A stretch of DNA of 64,000 nucleotides from positions 128,001 to 192,000 of the forward strand of contig JANNVX010000088.1 of NCBI GenBank assembly GCA_031414595.1, written 5' to 3'. The notes beneath the pieces were generated by a model, which ran no database searches, was not told the origin of the DNA, and was given only the letters and a program-made list of their open reading frames with translations. The stretch comes from Deinococcales bacterium (lineage in GTDB: Bacteria > Deinococcota > Deinococci > Deinococcales > JAAFIG01). A program made the position numbers and the translations under genes. Position 1 is the stretch's first letter; every line of letters starts with the position of its first letter. Shown here in pieces: positions 35,682 to 46,140 of this stretch.

Positions 35682-38351
35682 ATGCCCGTACTATCAATTG
35701 GAGACCGTCGCCTCGGAGCAATACTTTTACAACTTGGGTATGTATCAGACACAGACTTACAACGTGCTTTGGAAAAACACGCCGAACTCGGTGGTCGTTT
35801 AGCCGATATTTTGATCGACAATGGGATTGTCAATGAACGACGAATTGCCAGAGCCATCGAAGATGAACTTGGGTATCCTTTGGTCAATTTGGTGCTGCTC
35901 GAGCCAGAACCAGAAGTAACCGCCTTAATAGACGGCAATAAAGCCCAAGAACTGATGGCGTTTCCCTTTAAGTTCGAGAATGGCAAATTGCGGGTCGCCT
36001 TTGTTGACCCACTGAACACCATGGCAATAGAAGCCATCGAAGATGCCACAAATTGTGTTGTAGACCCGCACCAAGCCCTGCGTGACCATATTAAATGGGC
36101 GATTGCCACCTATTACCCCGAATTGGGTTTGGATATTCCAGAACTCGGTAAGTTGTCCAGCCCCGAAGAAGAACGGCTTGGCAATCGTTTGGCGCGTAAA
36201 GGGGTCATCACCGATGGGCAACTCGAGGAAGCTCTGGCGCTCCAAGAGCCAAATGGCGAACCGATAGGCAAAATTTTGGTGCGCTTAGGCTACTTACCCG
36301 AAGTCGAATTGTTTCGGGTGCTTGCCGAACAAGCCAATGCGCCGTTTATTGAAGATAGTATTTCCTTGGCTGTGCCAGAAGAAGTCTCGAGTTTACTGCT
36401 GCGTACCGATGCAGTGCGTTTTCAAGCCGTGCCAATCAGCGATGATGGCGTGACAATCACCATTGTTTGCCCTGAGCCAAAACGCCAACCAGACATTCAA
36501 GCCTTGTTCAAAAAACAAGTGCGAATTTCAATGATGGCACCTACCCAAGTCGAAGCCTTGATTGACCGTATCTATGTGTTCAAAGGGCAGGTAGGTACAA
36601 CTTTAATCATAGATGGTAAAATTAACCGTGAACAACTTGCCGAAGCGCTTAAAATCCAACGCAAAGAGGGGAAGTCCAAACCGCTTGGTGAAGTCCTTGT
36701 AGAACTCGGCTATGCCAGTTCCGATGAAGTAGACCGCGCCCTTGCCAAGCAAAAAACGGGTGGTGGTCGTCTCGAGGATACGCTGGTGCAGTCTGGCAAA
36801 CTCTCCCCAGAAATGCTGGCGAAGTCCTTGGCAGTGCAATTGGGCTATGAATTTGTCAATCCCGGGCAAGATGCCCCAGACCCCGGAGTGATTACCTTAA
36901 TCCCCGAAAATCAAGCGCGGCGTTATACACTTTTTCCTTATAAGATGCAGGGCAATGCACTGCAAGTTTTAATGAAAGACCCACGCAATGTCTTTGCCAT
37001 AGACGACTTAAAACTGATGACTGGGCGCGAGATTATTCCCGTCGTCGCCATCGAAGGCGATATTCAAAAACTGATTGACCGAGCGTATGGTGCAAGCGGA
37101 ATAAACGCCGATGAGTTAAATAAAGAACTGGCAGCCCTTGGTTCTGGTAGCAGTGGCAAAGTCGAAGAAATAGACTCGAGTTTAGACGATAACGCTGTGG
37201 TTCGCACGGTTGATCATGTCATCCGTGAAGCGATTCTGGCAGAGGCTTCGGATATTCACATCGAACCCACCCCAGACTTGGTGCGGGTTCGTTTTCGCAT
37301 AGACGGTTCGCTCAAAGAAATCACCACCCTGCCGAGGGCGAGTGCCAACAGTATTGCCGCCCGTATCAAAATCATGGGCGGCTTGGATATTGCTGAACGC
37401 CGCGTACCCCAAGATGGTCGGGTTAGTTTTAAGTCTAAAGGCATCAACTGCGATTTGCGTCTTTCTACCCTTCCCGTCAAATACGGTGAAAAAATTGTCA
37501 TGCGTGTGCTGCAAAAAGCTACCAACATTCCAGAAATCGAGGATTTGGGTTTCTCAGATTATAACTTAGAACGCTACAAAGACCTGATTCAAATCCCTTA
37601 CGGAATCTTTTTAATTACTGGTCCGACAGGTTCTGGTAAGTCCTACACGACCTTCTCGAGCCTAAAACGAATTGCTACCCCAGATATTAATGTCACCACC
37701 ATTGAAGACCCTATCGAATACGAAATTCCAGGCTTAAACCAATCACAAGTCAATAATGCGGCGGGTATGACTTTTGCGCGGGCGCTTAGGTCTTTTTTGC
37801 GGCAAGACCCAGACGTTATTATGGTCGGCGAAATCCGTGACACTGAAACCGCTAAAATTGCGGTTGAAGCTGCCCTGACAGGACATTTGGTGGTCGGAAC
37901 ACTCCACACCAATGATGCGGCTGGTGCAATTACTCGTCTCGAGGAAATGGGAGTAGAACTTTTCAATGTTTCGGCTTCCTTAGTTGGGGTACTAGCTCAG
38001 CGTTTAGTGCGTAAAGTCTGCAAAGACTGCAAACAAGAACTGCCCGCCGACCCTGAAGTGCTACGCCGCCTCGGAGTCAGTGAGGAGCAAGTGGTCGGAC
38101 GTACCATCGTTAAAGGTTTGGGCTGCAACAAATGCAGTGATACAGGTTATAAAGGTCGTATGGCAATCCACGAATTGATGGTGGTGGACGATCATGTTCG
38201 CAAGGCAATCATTGAACATAAAACTTCGACTGAAATCAGACAAATTGCCAGAGAAAAAGCTGGGCTTGTGACCTTAATGGAAGATGGTCTCGAAAAAGCC
38301 CTGCAAGGTAAAACCACGCTTGAGGAAATCGCCAGCGCAATCTCTGACTAA
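35682..38351 (+). CDS. pilB: type IV pilus assembly ATPase (PilB/Thermus PilF-type) with multiple MshEN/GSPII-N domains
   Basis: Repeated RLGxxLxxxG motifs, GPTGSGKS, RQDPDVIMVGEIRD, CxxC..CxxC zinc site. Confidence 0.95.
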   Translation: MPVLSIGDRRLGAILLQLGYVSDTDLQRALEKHAELGGRLADILIDNGIVNERRIARAIEDELGYPLVNLVLLEPEPEVTALIDGNKAQELMAFPFKFENGKLRVAFVDPLNTMAIEAIEDATNCVVDPHQALRDHIKWAIATYYPELGLDIPELGKLSSPEEERLGNRLARKGVITDGQLEEALALQEPNGEPIGKILVRLGYLPEVELFRVLAEQANAPFIEDSISLAVPEEVSSLLLRTDAVRFQAVPISDDGVTITIVCPEPKRQPDIQALFKKQVRISMMAPTQVEALIDRIYVFKGQVGTTLIIDGKINREQLAEALKIQRKEGKSKPLGEVLVELGYASSDEVDRALAKQKTGGGRLEDTLVQSGKLSPEMLAKSLAVQLGYEFVNPGQDAPDPGVITLIPENQARRYTLFPYKMQGNALQVLMKDPRNVFAIDDLKLMTGREIIPVVAIEGDIQKLIDRAYGASGINADELNKELAALGSGSSGKVEEIDSSLDDNAVVRTVDHVIREAILAEASDIHIEPTPDLVRVRFRIDGSLKEITTLPRASANSIAARIKIMGGLDIAERRVPQDGRVSFKSKGINCDLRLSTLPVKYGEKIVMRVLQKATNIPEIEDLGFSDYNLERYKDLIQIPYGIFLITGPTGSGKSYTTFSSLKRIATPDINVTTIEDPIEYEIPGLNQSQVNNAAGMTFARALRSFLRQDPDVIMVGEIRDTETAKIAVEAALTGHLVVGTLHTNDAAGAITRLEEMGVELFNVSASLVGVLAQRLVRKVCKDCKQELPADPEVLRRLGVSEEQVVGRTIVKGLGCNKCSDTGYKGRMAIHELMVVDDHVRKAIIEHKTSTEIRQIAREKAGLVTLMEDGLEKALQGKTTLEEIASAISD

Positions 38352-38423: not shown

Positions 38424-41279
38424 ATGACAGCCACCGCCGTCACAACTGTTCATTTGTCAACTTTAGGGCAACACCGTCTCGAGGGTCGTTCATTTACTCG
38501 CCCAAAAGCCGTGGCGTTTTTGACCTACTTACTGTTTGAAGGTCGGCAAAATCGGCATTTTCTGGCAGATTTTTTCTGGCAAGATGCCGAAGACCCAATG
38601 AATAGCCTACGCAATCAAATTTTTCAGCTTAAACCTTTTGTCGCAGATGCCCTAGTAACCTCACGGCAAAGCATCGAATTTATTGGAACTTGTGATGCCC
38701 TCGAGCTACTGCATTTACTCGAACTGGGGCAATTAGAAGCAGCCATAGCACTTTATCAAGGCGAATTTCTAGCTGGTTTTGAAGCACCGGACAACATCGA
38801 ACTGGCTGCATGGCTCAAAACCACCCGCCAATTTATTAAACGCCAAGTTCTCGAGGCTTATTTACAACTCTGCGAAAAGGCTTTAGCGCAAAAAAACCTT
38901 GACCAGATAGAGCCATACCTCGAGCAAGCCCAGAATGTACTGAATTTGGGCAGCACCGACTTAAAATCGTGGTTTACCCGACGAGTTGAGGACTTACAAA
39001 GTCGTATCCAAGAACAACAAAAACAAGTTACCCCCCATAATTTAATACCTTCCAGCAGCGAATTTATTGGACGAAGCCAAGAAATCAGTACAATTTTAAT
39101 CAATTTTCAAAATCAAGCCCAGTTGCTAACCCTGTTTGGCTTTGGCGGCATTGGCAAAACTACGCTTGCGCTCGAGACTGCCCGAACTGCTTTGCAGACC
39201 CAACAATACTTAGACGGTATTTACTTTATTGCCTTAGAAACAGCCCAAACCGAAAACGATTTACTGGCTCGAGTCGTCACGACCCTAGAAATAACTTTAC
39301 AAACCAGTCAGCCGATGCTTGAGCAGATTAAAACCTTTATTGGCGTTAAATCCATGTTGCTGGTTTTAGACAATTTCGAGCAACTGACCGAACAAACCCA
39401 CTTAATCGCCGAATTACTCGAGAACAGCCCAAATCTGCGTGTACTTTGCACCAGCCGTGAAGTGCTTGGCTTACAAGCCGAACATGTCTACCCGATTTCT
39501 GGACTCGAGACTACAAATATCAGTAGTGGCGCAGTGCAACTCTTTACCACTCGAGCCGCCGAAGAGTTTTCGAGCCAAGAACTTGAAATTATTTTAGAGA
39601 TTGTCCGAGTCTTACAAGGTATCCCATTAGCCATAGAACTGGCAGTCCCACAATTAAAGACTTTTAGTTTGCTCGAGTTACAAGCTGCCTTGCAAAAAAG
39701 CATGGATGCCCTACAAAGCCAAACCACCGAACTACCCGAGCGTCAACGCAGCATCCGAGCCGTGTTTTTACATTCATGGGCATTACTGAGCCAAGCCGAA
39801 CGCCAAGGCTTACAGCGCATGGCAGTTTTTAAGAACGGCGCAAACCGCCATGCGCTCTTAACCATAGCCCAAATTAGTCTATCGCAGATTGCCAATTTAA
39901 TAGATAAATCCTTTGTGCAACGGGCTGGACAACAACGGTACACGATTCATCCGCTTATTCTCGAGTACACTTTGGAGCTACTACAAGCCGACTCGGAATT
40001 TGCACCGATGCTAGGTAAGCACGCGTTTTTTTACCTAGACCAAATTGGCAACGAATTACCAAAAATTAGGGGAGCAGAAGCGGCGGCTGTGATGCAGAAA
40101 ATAGAAACTGATTTTGACAACCTAAAAGCAGCTTGGGCATGGGCGCTCGAGAATAAGGATTTTCCTCGAATAGCGGCACTCGAGGAAATGGTGGTCTACT
40201 TTGACCAGAAAGCACTTTTTTTTCAGGGGATAGAGTTTTTTGAAGAAGCGAATAGCAAACTTAAAGATGTTGTAAACCAGCCGTTGATGCTAAGTGGAAT
40301 AGCCATTGGAATTGCTTGGTTAAATTACCGTTTGGGGAACGCTGAGAAAGCAAAAATGTATGCAGAGTGTGCAGTTGAGTGTGCTAAAAGCGAGCTAATT
40401 TTAGGAAAAAATAATCTATCAAAAGCGTTCAATATTTTAGGAAGTATTGCATCATTAGATTATGAACACACAGCAGCATTGAATTATTTTAATGAAGCGG
40501 TTCGATATTGTGACTCTGATAATCTTAAAATTAGGAAAGTGACGCTTCTTTTAAGGATAGCAGGAATTTACCGAGAACTCGAGGATTTTGAAGGGTTTTG
40601 GGAAGTTTGGGAGTCTGCTTATGCAATAAATCAAGAATTGAATCTCGATACTTTAAGAGTTTTAGTGACCATACAAAAAGCAAACTTCATACTTTACTAT
40701 GTTTCAAAAGAAGAAATTATAAAATTTATACCTGAAATGATCGAAGTTTATAATCTAACTCGAAGTAGTTCTGTTAATGGTCAACCTTATTTTGAAGTTT
40801 TAATTTGCCAGTGTTATTTAGCTGTCAAAGATTTGAAAAATGCGGAATTCTGGCTTCAAAAGTTCATCCTAAGAGATACGTCTCAAATGAATCACCAGCT
40901 CAACTTTTTCTCGCAATCACTATTCGGAAAAATTGAAATACTGAAAGGGAATCGTAAAAATGCCAAAGACATATTGATCAACATTTTCTTTGTTCCCTTT
41001 GAAAGACACAATATTTTAACATTCTTTATGACTTCGGTTAGCTTAGTTGACTTACTCCCAGAGGTTTATAGCAACGATTTTCGGGATTTAGTAAAACTGG
41101 TCATCACTCATAAAGCGATGACCAGTCAGAAGATTTTAGTTAAGCAGTATTTGAAAGAAGAGTCTTTTGATGTGAGACTGGAATTACTTCAAGAGACTTC
41201 TGACCAGCAAATAGAATCTGCTCAACAGCGTATTATTGGTATGTTACGGACCACCGCCGTAGTTAGTAGGGTCAGCTAG
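38424..41279 (+). CDS. AfsR/SARP-like regulator: wHTH-BTAD, NB-ARC ATPase, TPR sensor
   Basis: 'LADFFW...NSLR', 'LYQGEFLAG', GFGGIGKT, LLVLDNFE, GIPLAIELA, HPLILEY, TPR C-terminus. Confidence 0.9.
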   Translation: MTATAVTTVHLSTLGQHRLEGRSFTRPKAVAFLTYLLFEGRQNRHFLADFFWQDAEDPMNSLRNQIFQLKPFVADALVTSRQSIEFIGTCDALELLHLLELGQLEAAIALYQGEFLAGFEAPDNIELAAWLKTTRQFIKRQVLEAYLQLCEKALAQKNLDQIEPYLEQAQNVLNLGSTDLKSWFTRRVEDLQSRIQEQQKQVTPHNLIPSSSEFIGRSQEISTILINFQNQAQLLTLFGFGGIGKTTLALETARTALQTQQYLDGIYFIALETAQTENDLLARVVTTLEITLQTSQPMLEQIKTFIGVKSMLLVLDNFEQLTEQTHLIAELLENSPNLRVLCTSREVLGLQAEHVYPISGLETTNISSGAVQLFTTRAAEEFSSQELEIILEIVRVLQGIPLAIELAVPQLKTFSLLELQAALQKSMDALQSQTTELPERQRSIRAVFLHSWALLSQAERQGLQRMAVFKNGANRHALLTIAQISLSQIANLIDKSFVQRAGQQRYTIHPLILEYTLELLQADSEFAPMLGKHAFFYLDQIGNELPKIRGAEAAAVMQKIETDFDNLKAAWAWALENKDFPRIAALEEMVVYFDQKALFFQGIEFFEEANSKLKDVVNQPLMLSGIAIGIAWLNYRLGNAEKAKMYAECAVECAKSELILGKNNLSKAFNILGSIASLDYEHTAALNYFNEAVRYCDSDNLKIRKVTLLLRIAGIYRELEDFEGFWEVWESAYAINQELNLDTLRVLVTIQKANFILYYVSKEEIIKFIPEMIEVYNLTRSSSVNGQPYFEVLICQCYLAVKDLKNAEFWLQKFILRDTSQMNHQLNFFSQSLFGKIEILKGNRKNAKDILINIFFVPFERHNILTFFMTSVSLVDLLPEVYSNDFRDLVKLVITHKAMTSQKILVKQYLKEESFDVRLELLQETSDQQIESAQQRIIGMLRTTAVVSRVS

Positions 41280-41384
41280 GGTGACTCCTAACAGGCTTGA
41301 AGCACCAAACATCAGAGCAAGCAAAGCTAAAGTAACAACCAAGGGCTTTGTGAGTTGCATGAGAACTAATTTTAAATTTTTCAT
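41244..41384 (-). CDS. 46-aa secreted prepeptide (signal peptide + DPTNYGGGP), not in ORF track
   Basis: AAGGAGGTG RBS then ATG; MKNLKLVLMQLTKPLVVTLALLALMFGASSLLGVTLA|DPTNYGGGP*. Confidence 0.8.
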   Translation of the reverse strand: MKNLKLVLMQLTKPLVVTLALLALMFGASSLLGVTLADPTNYGGGP

Positions 41385-41426
41385 AAACACCTCCTTCGGC
41401 TATACTTAGCCGAAGGAGGTGTTTAT
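41383..41426. promoter_or_regulatory. perfect 20-bp inverted repeat covering the prepeptide RBS
   Basis: ATAAACACCTCCTTCGGCTA-tact-TAGCCGAAGGAGGTGTTTAT. Confidence 0.8.
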
Positions 41427-41482
41427 TTGCAATCGTCGCGGCTTCTAAAACGTTTACTGTTTAACAGAGTAGGAAGAATAGA

Positions 41483-41935
41483 TTAGGGTCCACCACCAAA
41501 GTTTGTTGGATTACCAATATCATCACCCATTTTAGCAACAGGCAACTCGAGCAATTCGCCTTTCGCGTTGACCAATTCAAATTGCCCTTCAACTGGATTT
41601 GAAGTTCCAGCCGCTTCGCCCGGAATAACATACAGCCACCAGCCTTTGTAGACAATTTGTTGTTGGGCTTTGTCTGGGTTTCCGCCGCGTGTAATTGTGC
41701 TTAGGTCGCCTTGGTTCACGCCGCTTCCAGCTTTGGGTGTGCCAATTAATGGACTCCATTGCAAAATGAATTCCTGCATATAACCGGGGAATTGGTCGCC
41801 CCACGGGATGTACTTGTGGAATGGGTCGGTTTGCATTGGGCGGTACAAGTACACGGTTTGGTTTGTGCCAGTGACCAAGTGTGTGCCGTCACTCGAGACT
41901 TGGATAATGACTGTTTGGGCTGCTTCGTCTGCCAT
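41483..41935 (-). CDS. COG4315/Lipoprotein_15-like repeat protein without signal peptide, ending in NPTNFGGGP
   Basis: LV....TVYLY, W.PL...KAGSGV....L.TITR, Q.VYKGW.LY pattern; GAGGTG RBS. Confidence 0.7.
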   Translation of the reverse strand: MADEAAQTVIIQVSSDGTHLVTGTNQTVYLYRPMQTDPFHKYIPWGDQFPGYMQEFILQWSPLIGTPKAGSGVNQGDLSTITRGGNPDKAQQQIVYKGWWLYVIPGEAAGTSNPVEGQFELVNAKGELLELPVAKMGDDIGNPTNFGGGP

Positions 41936-42107
41936 GTTTCACCTCTGGGTTAGATTTTATTGCTTTTAGAGTCTATCAGAAATAGAACGGAAAACGGATT
42001 GCTCGAAGTGAACGAGGTTGCAAAATCACAAGAATAGATTCACAAACAACGTAATCGTGAATAAAATCACAAAATAGGCACTGCTTTTCTTGATATGCTT
42101 ACTAGCC

Positions 42108-43460
42108 ATGAATATTGAAAATGCCAAGACAGAACTGCTCGAATGGCTTGCCATTCCTAGCATCAGCACCCTTTCCGAACGCGCCCCCGAAATGCGCCAA
42201 GCTGCCGAATACCTGCATCAAAAACTAAGTAGTCTTGGCATTACCTCGAGTATCCTCGAGACGGCTGGACATCCCGTGGTGTACGCCGAACACCTCAAAG
42301 CAGACTCTAGCGCCCCAACGGTTTTATTGTACGGACATTACGATGTTCAACCCACCGACCCCGAAAACGAATGGACAACCCCACCGTTTGCCCCAGAAAT
42401 CCGAGACCAAGCCATTTATGCTCGAGGCAGCACCGACGACAAAGGACAAGTCTGGGCGCATGTGGCAGCTTTAGAGCATCACCTAACGACCCACGGAAAA
42501 TTGCCTGTCAACCTTAAAATTTTAATCGAAGGCGAAGAAGAAATCGGCAGCCCTAACCTTAAACCTTTTGTCCAGTGGAATGCGGCTAAACTCGGCTGTG
42601 ATGTGGTGGTGATTTCCGATGGCAGCATGTTCGCGCCAAACGTCCCGACCCTGACGACTGGACTGCGTGGATTGTGTTATCTCGAGGTGCATGTTCAAGG
42701 CGCAAAACAAGACCTGCATTCGGGCGGCTACGGCGGTGCAGTCGCCAACCCAATTCAAGCCCTCGCCCAGATTATTCAGAGCCTTCGCAATGGCAACGGC
42801 GAGATTCTGATTCCAAGCATATATAACGATGTGCGCCCTGTCCCACCAGAAGAACTCGAGGGCTGGAAGCGTTTACCTTTTGATGAAGCAGCCCTGATGA
42901 AATCTGTGGGAGTCAGCGCCCTGCCCGGTGAAACCGGATACTCTGTCCTCGAGCGGCTCTGGGCAAGACCGACCTTAGAGATTAACGGCATCTGGGGCGG
43001 ATTTAGTGGCGAAGGACAAAAAACTGTGCTGCCCGCTAAGGCTGGCGCAAAAATCAGCCTCAGACTTGTGCCAGACCAAGAACCAGACCAAATTTTTGAA
43101 TTGGTCAAAAACCATATTCATAGCCTCGAGTTACCCGGCGTGACCGTCAGGGTTAAAAAACTACACACTGGTAATCCAGCGCTGGTGGACGCAAACAGCC
43201 CCGCCGCCCAAGCTGCGATTGCCGCCCTGTCTCGAGCTTACCCAAATGTTAAGCCATCCTTGGTACGGACTGGCGGTACAATCCCAGTGGTTTCGGTTTT
43301 CCGCGAAGTGCTAAACGCACCTGTATTACTGGTGGATTACGGCTTACCAGATGACGGAGCGCACGGACCAAATGAACGTTTTACGCTCGAGTGTTTTGAA
43401 AAAGGCATAGAAACCAGTATTTACTTATACGAAGAACTGGCAAAACTCGAGAAACGCTAA
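42108..43460 (+). CDS. M20 family dipeptidase
   Basis: YGHYDVQP, ARGSTDDKG, EGEEEIGS, DLHSG, AHGPNE. Confidence 0.93.
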   Translation: MNIENAKTELLEWLAIPSISTLSERAPEMRQAAEYLHQKLSSLGITSSILETAGHPVVYAEHLKADSSAPTVLLYGHYDVQPTDPENEWTTPPFAPEIRDQAIYARGSTDDKGQVWAHVAALEHHLTTHGKLPVNLKILIEGEEEIGSPNLKPFVQWNAAKLGCDVVVISDGSMFAPNVPTLTTGLRGLCYLEVHVQGAKQDLHSGGYGGAVANPIQALAQIIQSLRNGNGEILIPSIYNDVRPVPPEELEGWKRLPFDEAALMKSVGVSALPGETGYSVLERLWARPTLEINGIWGGFSGEGQKTVLPAKAGAKISLRLVPDQEPDQIFELVKNHIHSLELPGVTVRVKKLHTGNPALVDANSPAAQAAIAALSRAYPNVKPSLVRTGGTIPVVSVFREVLNAPVLLVDYGLPDDGAHGPNERFTLECFEKGIETSIYLYEELAKLEKR

Positions 43461-45579: not shown

Positions 45580-46140
45580 ATGACGTTGGCTGCCACACAA
45601 CTGATGACTGCCGAAATGCTCGAGGTGCTGCCCAACGATGGGCGGCGTTTGGAGCTTGTGAAGGGAGAATTACGAGAACTTATGGCAAGTGGAGGAGACC
45701 ACGGTGATGTGACGATGGAACTTTCGTGGCGACTAGCACGAATTGCTTTTGAGGATAAACTCGGTAAGGTGTTTGCAGCAGAAACTGGTTTTATTGTGGA
45801 CAGAAACCCAGATACGGTACGAGCGCCAGATATTGCCTTTATGTGTAAAGAACGAATCGAACTGATGGGTGGTATTCCCAAAGGGTACATTCCACTTGCC
45901 CCAGACATAGCTGTTGAAACCATTTCACCAAACGATTTGTATACCGAAAGCCACGCAAAAGCCATGATGTGGCTTGAATTTGGTTCAAAACTGGTCTTGG
46001 TTCTTAATCCTAGAAAAGCAAGTATTACTGTATACCGAGCAAACTCTGTTCCTATCGAATTAAAACCAGAAGACAGACTTGAGTTTGTAGATATTCTGCC
46101 AAGATTCTCCGTCCGAGTCGGCGAGATTTTTGGAATATAA
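45580..46140 (+). CDS. Uma2 family endonuclease-fold protein
   Basis: ELVKGEL, RAPDIAF, APDIAVETISPND. Confidence 0.9.
   Translation: MTLAATQLMTAEMLEVLPNDGRRLELVKGELRELMASGGDHGDVTMELSWRLARIAFEDKLGKVFAAETGFIVDRNPDTVRAPDIAFMCKERIELMGGIPKGYIPLAPDIAVETISPNDLYTESHAKAMMWLEFGSKLVLVLNPRKASITVYRANSVPIELKPEDRLEFVDILPRFSVRVGEIFGI

Follow-up and report, generated by a model that had tools for sequence, protein, structure and literature searches.

For STAND regulators of the kind represented by MalT of Escherichia coli, the known inducers are small molecules, maltotriose in the case of MalT itself. Control of MalT by both inducer and partner proteins is cited as established in PMC10936776, and the same source reports that in AfsR, a large NLR-like regulator of the SARP type, the NOD and tetratricopeptide repeat (TPR) domains inhibit the SARP head. 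The natural activating signal of AfsR is described as still unidentified in 10.64898/2026.09.02.748808, and both texts describe as unknown the signals that the TPR domains of AfsR-like NLR-type regulators sense. A further parallel is suggested by the FxSxx-COOH systems, in which a small protein with an extreme C-terminal motif, said to be cleaved, is associated with NB-ARC/TPR proteins (NF040586; PMC7159879). Here we report on a stretch of 64,000 nucleotides from a Deinococcales bacterium (GenBank assembly GCA_031414595.1, contig JANNVX010000088.1, positions 128,001 to 192,000; henceforth the window, whose own coordinates are used below), in which the gene for an AfsR-like STAND regulator of 951 residues (38424..41279, plus strand) is convergent with the genes for a 150-residue protein (41483..41935, minus strand) and a 46-residue prepeptide (41244..41384, minus strand). 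The two smaller proteins share a fast-evolving tail whose inheritance follows the regulator's sensor half, an indication that Deinococcus relatives may possess an undescribed peptide-sensing switch; a literature search, with supplements outside its scope, returned no description of the protein family, its C-terminal Gly-Pro rule or the cassette detailed below.

The two tails had been noticed in a preliminary description of this DNA, which took their match to be held at the protein level, and both observations are borne out. The 150-residue open reading frame (ORF) ends in DDIGNPTNFGGGP (NPTNFGGGP) and the 46-residue ORF, 92 nucleotides downstream, ends in TLADPTNYGGGP (DPTNYGGGP, 41247-41273); 7 of the 9 residues and 17 of the 27 nucleotides are identical. 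Because 5 of the 7 identical residues are written with different codons, one tail is not a recent DNA copy of the other. The motif PTN[YF]GGGP occurs twice in a six-frame translation of the whole 4.49-Mb genome, both times at this locus; likewise, only 3 of 55,339 stop-to-stop frames of at least 40 codons end in GGP genome-wide, two of them being the window's tail genes. Compared with the rest of the genome, the prepeptide matches best to the end of the 150-residue protein.

The 150-residue protein, a putative carrier or precursor delineated from its ORF, Pfam, its AlphaFold2 (AF2) model and homologs, does resemble Lipoprotein_15/COG4315, as had been suggested, yet its score of 12.3 bits against PF03640 lies below the gathering score of 24.4. 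The same Pfam model is matched at E<=0.01 by 16 of 35 family members (best 2.7e-7), and the canonical secreted Lipoprotein_15 proteins are in turn found by the family profile. Judged by sequence, the family is a divergent relative of Lipoprotein_15/COG4315 rather than a regular member, and an unannotated Deinococcota offshoot without signal peptide. The earlier statement that the window protein has no signal peptide stands because an in-frame TGA lies two codons before its ATG, the N-terminus being polar as well; nearly all other family members also lack one, P0033 and P0045 alone having a hydrophobic N-terminus. These two members of the protein library combine that N-terminal segment with a Gly-Pro end, and anchored or secreted forms of the family exist.

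In the AF2 model, a globular domain (residues 5-131), divergent but COG4315/Lipoprotein_15-like, precedes a C-terminal tail (residues 132-150, 41486..41542, minus strand; PVAKMGDDIGNPTNFGGGP) that is predicted to be disordered: the predicted local distance difference test score (pLDDT) is 84-93 over residues 11-130 and below 50 over residues 132-150. Against the Protein Data Bank (PDB), Foldseek with this model gave no match at E<=0.001, and a wide VIA-align search gave no chain at Z>=2. An alignment of 35 family members with a mean identity of 31% has only four invariant columns, P62, Q93, G149 and P150, the last two being the terminal Gly-Pro (41486-41491). Directly before the constant GGP, residues 145-147 (41495-41503) form a hypervariable core; among 11 genus-level homologs they are the three most variable columns of the whole protein, with entropies of 1.9-2.2 bits versus a mean of 0.28 for residues 1-131. 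Close homologs, 82-94% identical, accordingly keep the body and differ in the tail (NPTDYDGGP, NPTTWAGGP, SPIVPSGGP, DPTTLAGGP, DPTNFNGGP, DPTTLGGGP).

The terminal rule extends across the phylum. A genome search found the family in 42 of 364 genomes, and of the 30 loci returned, one gave no match and one was cut by a contig end, leaving 28 complete genes, all 28 of which end in Gly-Pro, as do all 35 aligned members. Homologs thus retain the tail, which the preliminary description had left to be checked. A profile search of 1.84 billion representatives gave 42 matches, of which 26 were fetched; 21 of these are stand-alone proteins of 83-192 residues ending in Gly-Pro and the other five are canonical secreted Lipoprotein_15 proteins. 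Metagenome scans for further loci found nothing. A contig from an RNA library of a relative (95% alike) spans 41741-41942, which is not proof of transcription. Tandem pairs of family genes occur in the Deinococcus loci L038, L039 and L056-L059; both members end in Gly-Pro with differing tails, for example GAEQQGP and VVLPGPFLGP, such that these loci have two tails per regulator and no prepeptide gene.

The regulator was delineated from Pfam, its AF2 model and profile matches to the PDB. Its predicted order is a winged helix-turn-helix (wHTH) plus BTAD region (residues ~1-200), an NB-ARC NTPase with the Walker A motif GFGGIGKT (residues ~210-470) followed by a winged helix, and an all-helical TPR sensor (residues 526-947). 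The NB-ARC score is above its cut-off (40.9 bits versus 23.5) and the BTAD score slightly below (20.4 versus 22.1, with module paralogs at 32-64 bits); Trans_reg_C gave no match in the window regulator, while the AF2 model of the head has a strand/helix wHTH-like start followed by a helical bundle. The best PDB match of the regulator profile is AfsR (8k60, E 5.6e-26), followed by the TPR sensor PH0952 (6mfv, E 7.3e-26). Hence, the central NB-ARC and C-terminal TPR domains of the AfsR-type large SARP regulators are both present; orthology to AfsR itself fails, with 32.8 bits against the equivalog NF053617 versus a cut-off of 1430, and NF040586 matches over the NB-ARC part with 42.7 bits versus a cut-off of 300. 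In the sensor, W632 and A643 are kept in 20 of 20 sequences across the phylum, N670 and A692 in 19 and R704 in 17, and beyond residue 710 only two alanines are kept, A807 (16/20) and A847 (17/20). This distribution would fit a fixed anchor for Gly-Pro-COOH together with a variable specificity surface. A complex prediction for regulator residues 520-951 with the 150-residue protein scored 0.04, which is evidence neither way.

Protein and regulator form a syntenic pair. In 25 of 28 assessable loci, the family gene has a convergent regulator homolog as its immediate neighbor; these are the window, 16 of 16 in one set, three more in the genus, two in the genus g4 and three others; because the loci are kin, this count describes a pattern and is not a statistical test. 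The two gene ends lie within ~35 nucleotides of each other or overlap in 12 of 16 loci examined, and the four exceptions carry an inserted gene, either for a prepeptide (L040, L050) or for a glutaminyl cyclase (L043, L046). In the window, it is the prepeptide gene that overlaps the regulator gene, tail to tail on opposite strands, by 36 nucleotides (41244-41279). The other neighbors of the module are unrelated between genera.

Tail codons, intergenic DNA and the last ~350 regulator residues are one cassette that has been swapped between backbones ~87-97% identical in two genera. In the window, it covers 40200..41530, with regulator residues ~592-951 at one end, the tail codons at the other and the prepeptide gene in the intergenic DNA between them. 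Compared with the locus L002, the DNA is 85-97% identical over the body of the 150-residue gene and over regulator codons 1 to ~590; from ~41527 to 40221, identity drops to 39-75% per 60-column bin (mostly 40-59%), with several bins unalignable, and the tail-side breakpoint lies near 41527-41530. Correspondingly, the two regulators are 87.6% identical over residues 1-590 and 27% over 232 residues of the 600-951 region (E 4e-7), a match that is weaker than that of the window to another genus when the halves are searched by BLAST; a single clade of the peptide-bearing cassettes from the window's genus (g1) and g4 would have only slight backing, as L040 is the best match from the other genus by a small margin only. 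The synonymous divergence (dS) from L002 is 0.57 in the N-terminal part and 1.63 in the C-terminal part, and against L003 the order is reversed (1.75 and 1.02); from these identity and dS contrasts, cassette type is therefore incongruent with the backbone. It goes instead with tail type and prepeptide presence: type A (window, L001, L003) has the tail DPTxxxGGP, a prepeptide gene and a longer regulator end, and type B (L002, L004) has the tail PGVPNYGGP, no prepeptide gene and a different, shorter TPR end. Contig X10, from an unrelated sample, follows the window down to 41530 and then diverges to codons for DDVGDPG.

Four loci of g4 repeat this pattern, with a distinct tail and a distinct TPR end in each. 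Regulator identity among them is 76-97% as far as residue ~600 and falls to 15-45% past residue 700 in five of six pairs, the exception being L041/L052, which keeps 60% in the 700-800 bin; their partner proteins are 90-98% identical outside the tail. In both genera, the breakpoints coincide with the same domain boundaries, i.e., the start of the disordered tail and regulator residue ~590-650. The preliminary description had conceived the 150-residue protein as a tethered ligand, mimic or antagonist for the same TPR pocket, or as a second precursor. A tail selected at the protein level and linked to a TPR regulator, with which it moves as one swapped cassette, upholds the connection; the roles first assigned to the two small genes are reversed, the 150-residue protein being the universal partner and the prepeptide being present in some cassettes only.

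The prepeptide is for this reason a derived, cassette-borne add-on. Its likely start is the ATG at 41384, 5 nucleotides after GGAGG, with a GTG at 41390 as the alternative. The leader (MKNLK at its start, a hydrophobic core, then TLA) is predicted by eye to be a Sec signal peptide with a basic N-terminus, whose cleavage would leave DPTNYGGGP. That this is a true gene is supported by the comparison with L003, where its frame is the only one open in both loci and differs by 11 synonymous and 10 mostly conservative codon changes, and the homologs P0053 and P0054 were called as genes by NCBI and JGI. Three intact variants, from the window, L003 and a metagenome, respectively, combine a conserved leader with the variable tails DPTNYGGGP, DPTGYNGGP and GDPPGLNGGP, while L040 has a differently led signal-peptide ORF ending in GPSTVNGGP after a protein ending in GPTSLNSGP. 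Intact copies of the gene are carried by the window, L003 and L040; most loci, among them L002, L004 and those with tight convergence, lack it. A perfect 20-bp hairpin (41383..41426, minus strand) covers the GGAGG and the AU of the start codon; it folds with -39.3 kcal/mol over a 116-nucleotide stretch (z -6.9), is kept in L003 and is deleted in L001. On the plus strand, TTTATTT directly follows it, and the hairpin may also terminate the regulator transcript, while a terminator scan did not call the 41383-41426 hairpin. If it is a terminator, the whole prepeptide gene would lie antisense within the 3' untranslated region of the regulator.

A sister subfamily offers a hint as to how the tail might be used. 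Outside the window, the same genome has a second module (C88:280431-284735; L046:9429-13735) with a 145-residue Gly-Pro-tail protein (tail NDQKIGAGP) and a convergent BTAD/NB-ARC/TPR regulator of 1022 residues, and between the two, 6 nucleotides after the stop of the 145-residue gene, begins the gene for a leaderless paralog of glutaminyl cyclase. The same protein-cyclase-regulator arrangement recurs in G335, so that two of three sister-subfamily loci with context have the cyclase between both genes. The leaderless paralogs score 140.7 and 159.7 bits against PF05096 (cut-off 22.3); the canonical cyclase of the same genome carries a signal peptide. In eight sister-subfamily sequences, residue 7 from the end is Gln in six and Glu in two. 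The substrate of a glutaminyl cyclase must begin with a free Gln or Glu, which in the simplest reading suggests release of the tail, with cleavage to a heptapeptide followed by pyroglutamate formation. The genome contains a further BTAD/NB-ARC/TPR paralog (L046:1262-4706), which is convergent not with a Gly-Pro-tail gene but with that of a 157-residue membrane protein resembling, by eye, an isoprenylcysteine or phospholipid methyltransferase.

Taking the family, the invariant Gly-Pro, the hypervariability, the predicted disordered tail, the synteny and the cassette swaps together, we tentatively propose, as the leading possibility and one still short of probable, that the window presents one member of a conserved two-gene Deinococcota module in which the tail is an allele-specific ligand of the TPR sensor, probably a released one. 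The AfsR-like activator would combine a SARP DNA-binding head, an NB-ARC switch and a TPR sensor, and the convergent gene would supply a small cytoplasmic COG4315-like protein with a flexible tail consisting of a conserved frame, a hypervariable core of 3-4 residues and the invariant Gly-Pro-COOH. Most likely, cleavage would free the tail as a peptide of 7-9 residues with both ends protected, one by the C-terminal proline and the other, in the sister subfamily, by an N-terminal pyroglutamate made by the module-borne leaderless cyclase. This peptide might then relieve the NOD-TPR autoinhibition, as is known for AfsR and other STAND regulators. The window's cassette type would have added a second gene inside the cassette, a Sec-type prepeptide whose predicted mature form DPTNYGGGP nearly equals the protein tail NPTNFGGGP; through it, a ligand of the same type would reach the outside, where cell-to-cell action like that of an RRNPP pheromone, as agonist or as competitor, could follow. 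More doubtfully, we suggest that these modules constitute a new peptide-signaling class, in which NLR-like factors read a linked Gly-Pro-COOH peptide that is carrier derived, pyroglutamate capped in one subfamily and Sec secreted in some alleles, with pherotype cassettes.

The steps of this proposal from binding and cleavage of the tail through export and uptake to the regulatory output are inferred, and several observations weigh against it. The co-variation of tail and TPR half could come from linkage alone because the two adjoin, and a single recombination event replaces both. The conservation of the 130-residue globular domain exceeds what a mere leader needs. The leaderless cyclase paralog is present in only 2 of 364 genomes, and this putative enzyme keeps 46-48 of 66 positions conserved in 29 canonical cyclases (one of which may come from the unpublished genome G324). 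No conserved protease, exporter or importer adjoins the module in eight loci. The related Deinococcus loci L056-L058 have family genes and no regulator within the fetched 14 kb, with genes for an APH kinase, a small P-loop protein and TelA downstream in its place. As for the prepeptide, its ribosome-binding site is buried in the 20-bp hairpin, and in L001 the gene is broken by the loss of ~70 bp that include the ribosome-binding site and the start codon. The protein tail tracks the neighboring peptide only in part: the two are close in the window (TNFG versus TNYG) and in L040 (GPTSLNSGP versus GPSTVNGGP), but in L003 only the frame DPT...GGP is shared (TTLG versus TGYN), and in L001 the tail does not track the peptide.

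Among the alternatives, the one that survives best, though we consider it unlikely, is that the 150-residue protein is a tethered ligand or coregulator, which would remain uncleaved, dock via its globular domain and insert its tail into the TPR sensor as an anti- or coactivator. Here the COG4315-like domain could be the one to sense the real signal, and the reimported prepeptide would compete for the pocket. The globular domain is strongly conserved (90-98% within genera), as are the N-terminal 590 residues of the regulator, and an additional contact through conserved surfaces would agree with this; the module lacks a conserved protease; and MalT, as described in PMC10936776, is a STAND regulator under the control of protein partners. 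Nevertheless, the Gln or Glu at position -7 and the cytoplasmic cyclase paralog make sense only with a new N-terminus, and it is not obvious why alleles should diversify within a genus if lock and key were purely intracellular.

It is improbable, in our estimate, that tail and sensor are linked without interacting. On this account, the convergent 3' ends are a recombination-prone, fast-evolving stretch, and the Gly-Pro end has another purpose, such as carboxypeptidase protection, a stability signal or slow termination at a Pro-stop, so that tails would be alike through that shared purpose. A C-terminal proline does slow termination in E. coli; tail and TPR half are contiguous DNA; and both dS and the nonsynonymous divergence (dN) are higher in the cassette, as expected of imported or ancient alleles rather than of local adaptation. 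Against this stand the recurrence of the breakpoints at the same domain boundaries in two genera and the acquisition, in g1 and g4, of the same tail frame by unrelated signal-peptide ORFs. Moreover, the variable TPR half is not junk because it is confidently folded in the AF2 model (pLDDT mostly 80-95 over residues 600-850).

Antiviral roles are common among bacterial STAND/NLR proteins whose TPR sensors vary, a context discussed for such proteins by Kaur et al. 2020 (PMC7159879), which raises the alternative of a conflict or defense module: an NLR-like STAND protein would sense an invader via its hypervariable TPR, with the Gly-Pro-tail protein as a guarded decoy or bait and an arms race as the source of variation. 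One module does lie on a plasmid of Deinococcus gobiensis, where its neighbor is an HNH endonuclease gene. This explanation is nevertheless decidedly improbable, the N-terminal output being a predicted SARP-type DNA-binding domain and not a nuclease, protease or TIR domain, and the flanks being ordinary housekeeping genes; PADLOC gave one weak match for the regulator (mad8, E 0.0016) and none for the two small proteins, and a known anti-phage defense system was rejected for want of PADLOC support. Finally, an exported bioactive tail peptide akin to the ribosomally synthesized and posttranslationally modified peptides, with the SARP-type regulator merely its pathway-specific activator, would agree with the classical role of SARPs as cluster-situated activators, with the cyclase as a tailoring enzyme and with the protection of both peptide ends, but is very improbable given that no exporter, immunity or further tailoring gene lies in any of the eight neighborhoods and that a sensor half swapped together with the product goes unexplained unless the product is the inducer, which is the released-ligand proposal again.

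Some features of the surroundings may be recorded. By eye, the window neighbors include a PilB/GspE-type ATPase, FtsH, ClpB and a DUF820/Uma2-like endonuclease (45580-46140, 35682-38351). The divergent M20 peptidase gene (42090-43460) was considered as a source of the processing enzyme and rejected, being a neighbor only within the genus. The plasmid-borne module is that of P5 from the cultivable strain D. gobiensis I-0 (L092, NC_017806.1 47471-50753), where the plasmid gene table used, which is incomplete, does not list the family gene and gives the regulator, abutted by the HNH endonuclease gene, the name "NB-ARC domain-containing protein" only. A conserved TCGAGC upstream of the 150-residue gene was rejected as a SARP box because CTCGAG is the commonest hexamer of the genome, with 23,235 sites or ~5.2 per kb, 24 times the expectation from base composition, of which 306 lie in the window. 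The enrichment (4.5-8.3 per kb) is common to the module loci of three genera of the same family, g1, g4 and g5, and CTCGAG is not enriched in Deinococcus loci (~0.05 per kb). At the other extreme, several palindromes are nearly absent genome-wide (TGCGCA, 2; CGATCG, CGCGCG, GACGTC and GGCGCC, 3 each).

Should the suggested peptide-signaling class prove true, an AfsR-like regulator would for the first time have a natural ligand assigned to it, and the pyroglutamate-capped tail peptide would be much like animal hormones of the thyrotropin-releasing hormone type. The module supplies a candidate, genetically linked ligand for AfsR-like TPR sensors together with natural specificity variants, and an unannotated protein family defined by a strict C-terminal Gly-Pro rule. 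It also illustrates plainly how one specificity cassette can extend over the 3' ends of a convergent gene pair, and it hints at cytoplasmic pyroglutamyl peptides in bacteria. The Microbacterium pyroglutamyl peptides of PMC10146280 are casein fragments and not relevant here.

Among described systems, the RRNPP group (PlcR/PapR, NprR/NprX, Rap/Phr and PrgX) is alike in that the gene of a cytoplasmic TPR receptor adjoins a small propeptide gene of the Sec type (predicted by eye in the window, and lacking in most module loci), with the C-terminal oligopeptide as the ligand there and as the proposed ligand here, and in the joint diversification of receptor and peptide into specificity types; the regulator profile even weakly matches a Rap protein (8rst, E 7.5e-8). 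The receptor here is, however, of the STAND/NLR type. In RRNPP receptors, the TPR part is joined directly to an HTH or phosphatase output with no NTPase, whereas here an NB-ARC switch separates the putative SARP head from the sensor, so that the module is not an RRNPP pair even though it would work like one. The universal source of the peptide also differs, being the tail of a folded cytoplasmic protein without signal peptide, with an invariant terminal Gly-Pro and the secreted propeptide as an option. With the AfsR-type regulators of Actinomycetota, the window regulator shares the domain order SARP (a predicted head here), NB-ARC and TPR, while belonging to a different phylum and not being an ortholog; here, in contrast, a genetically linked candidate ligand is visible. 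PH0952 of Pyrococcus and MalT share the TPR-like repeat sensor, but no partner with a variable peptide tail has been described for them. In the FxSxx-COOH systems, a variable body carries a conserved C-terminal peptide, whereas here conservation lies in the body and variation in the peptide; GGP stands at the end of the tail in place of the FxSxx motif, the eight loci have no zincin peptidase or radical-SAM gene as maturase or peptidase neighbor, and the score against the TPR equivalog stays below its cut-off. The closest counterpart of the exchange itself is found in the pherotype cassettes of comQXP in Bacillus and agrBDC in Staphylococcus, where, as here, a contiguous block encoding the signal and the receptor part that binds it is exchanged between near-identical backgrounds, even though the proteins are unrelated and the block here spans the 3' ends of convergent genes.

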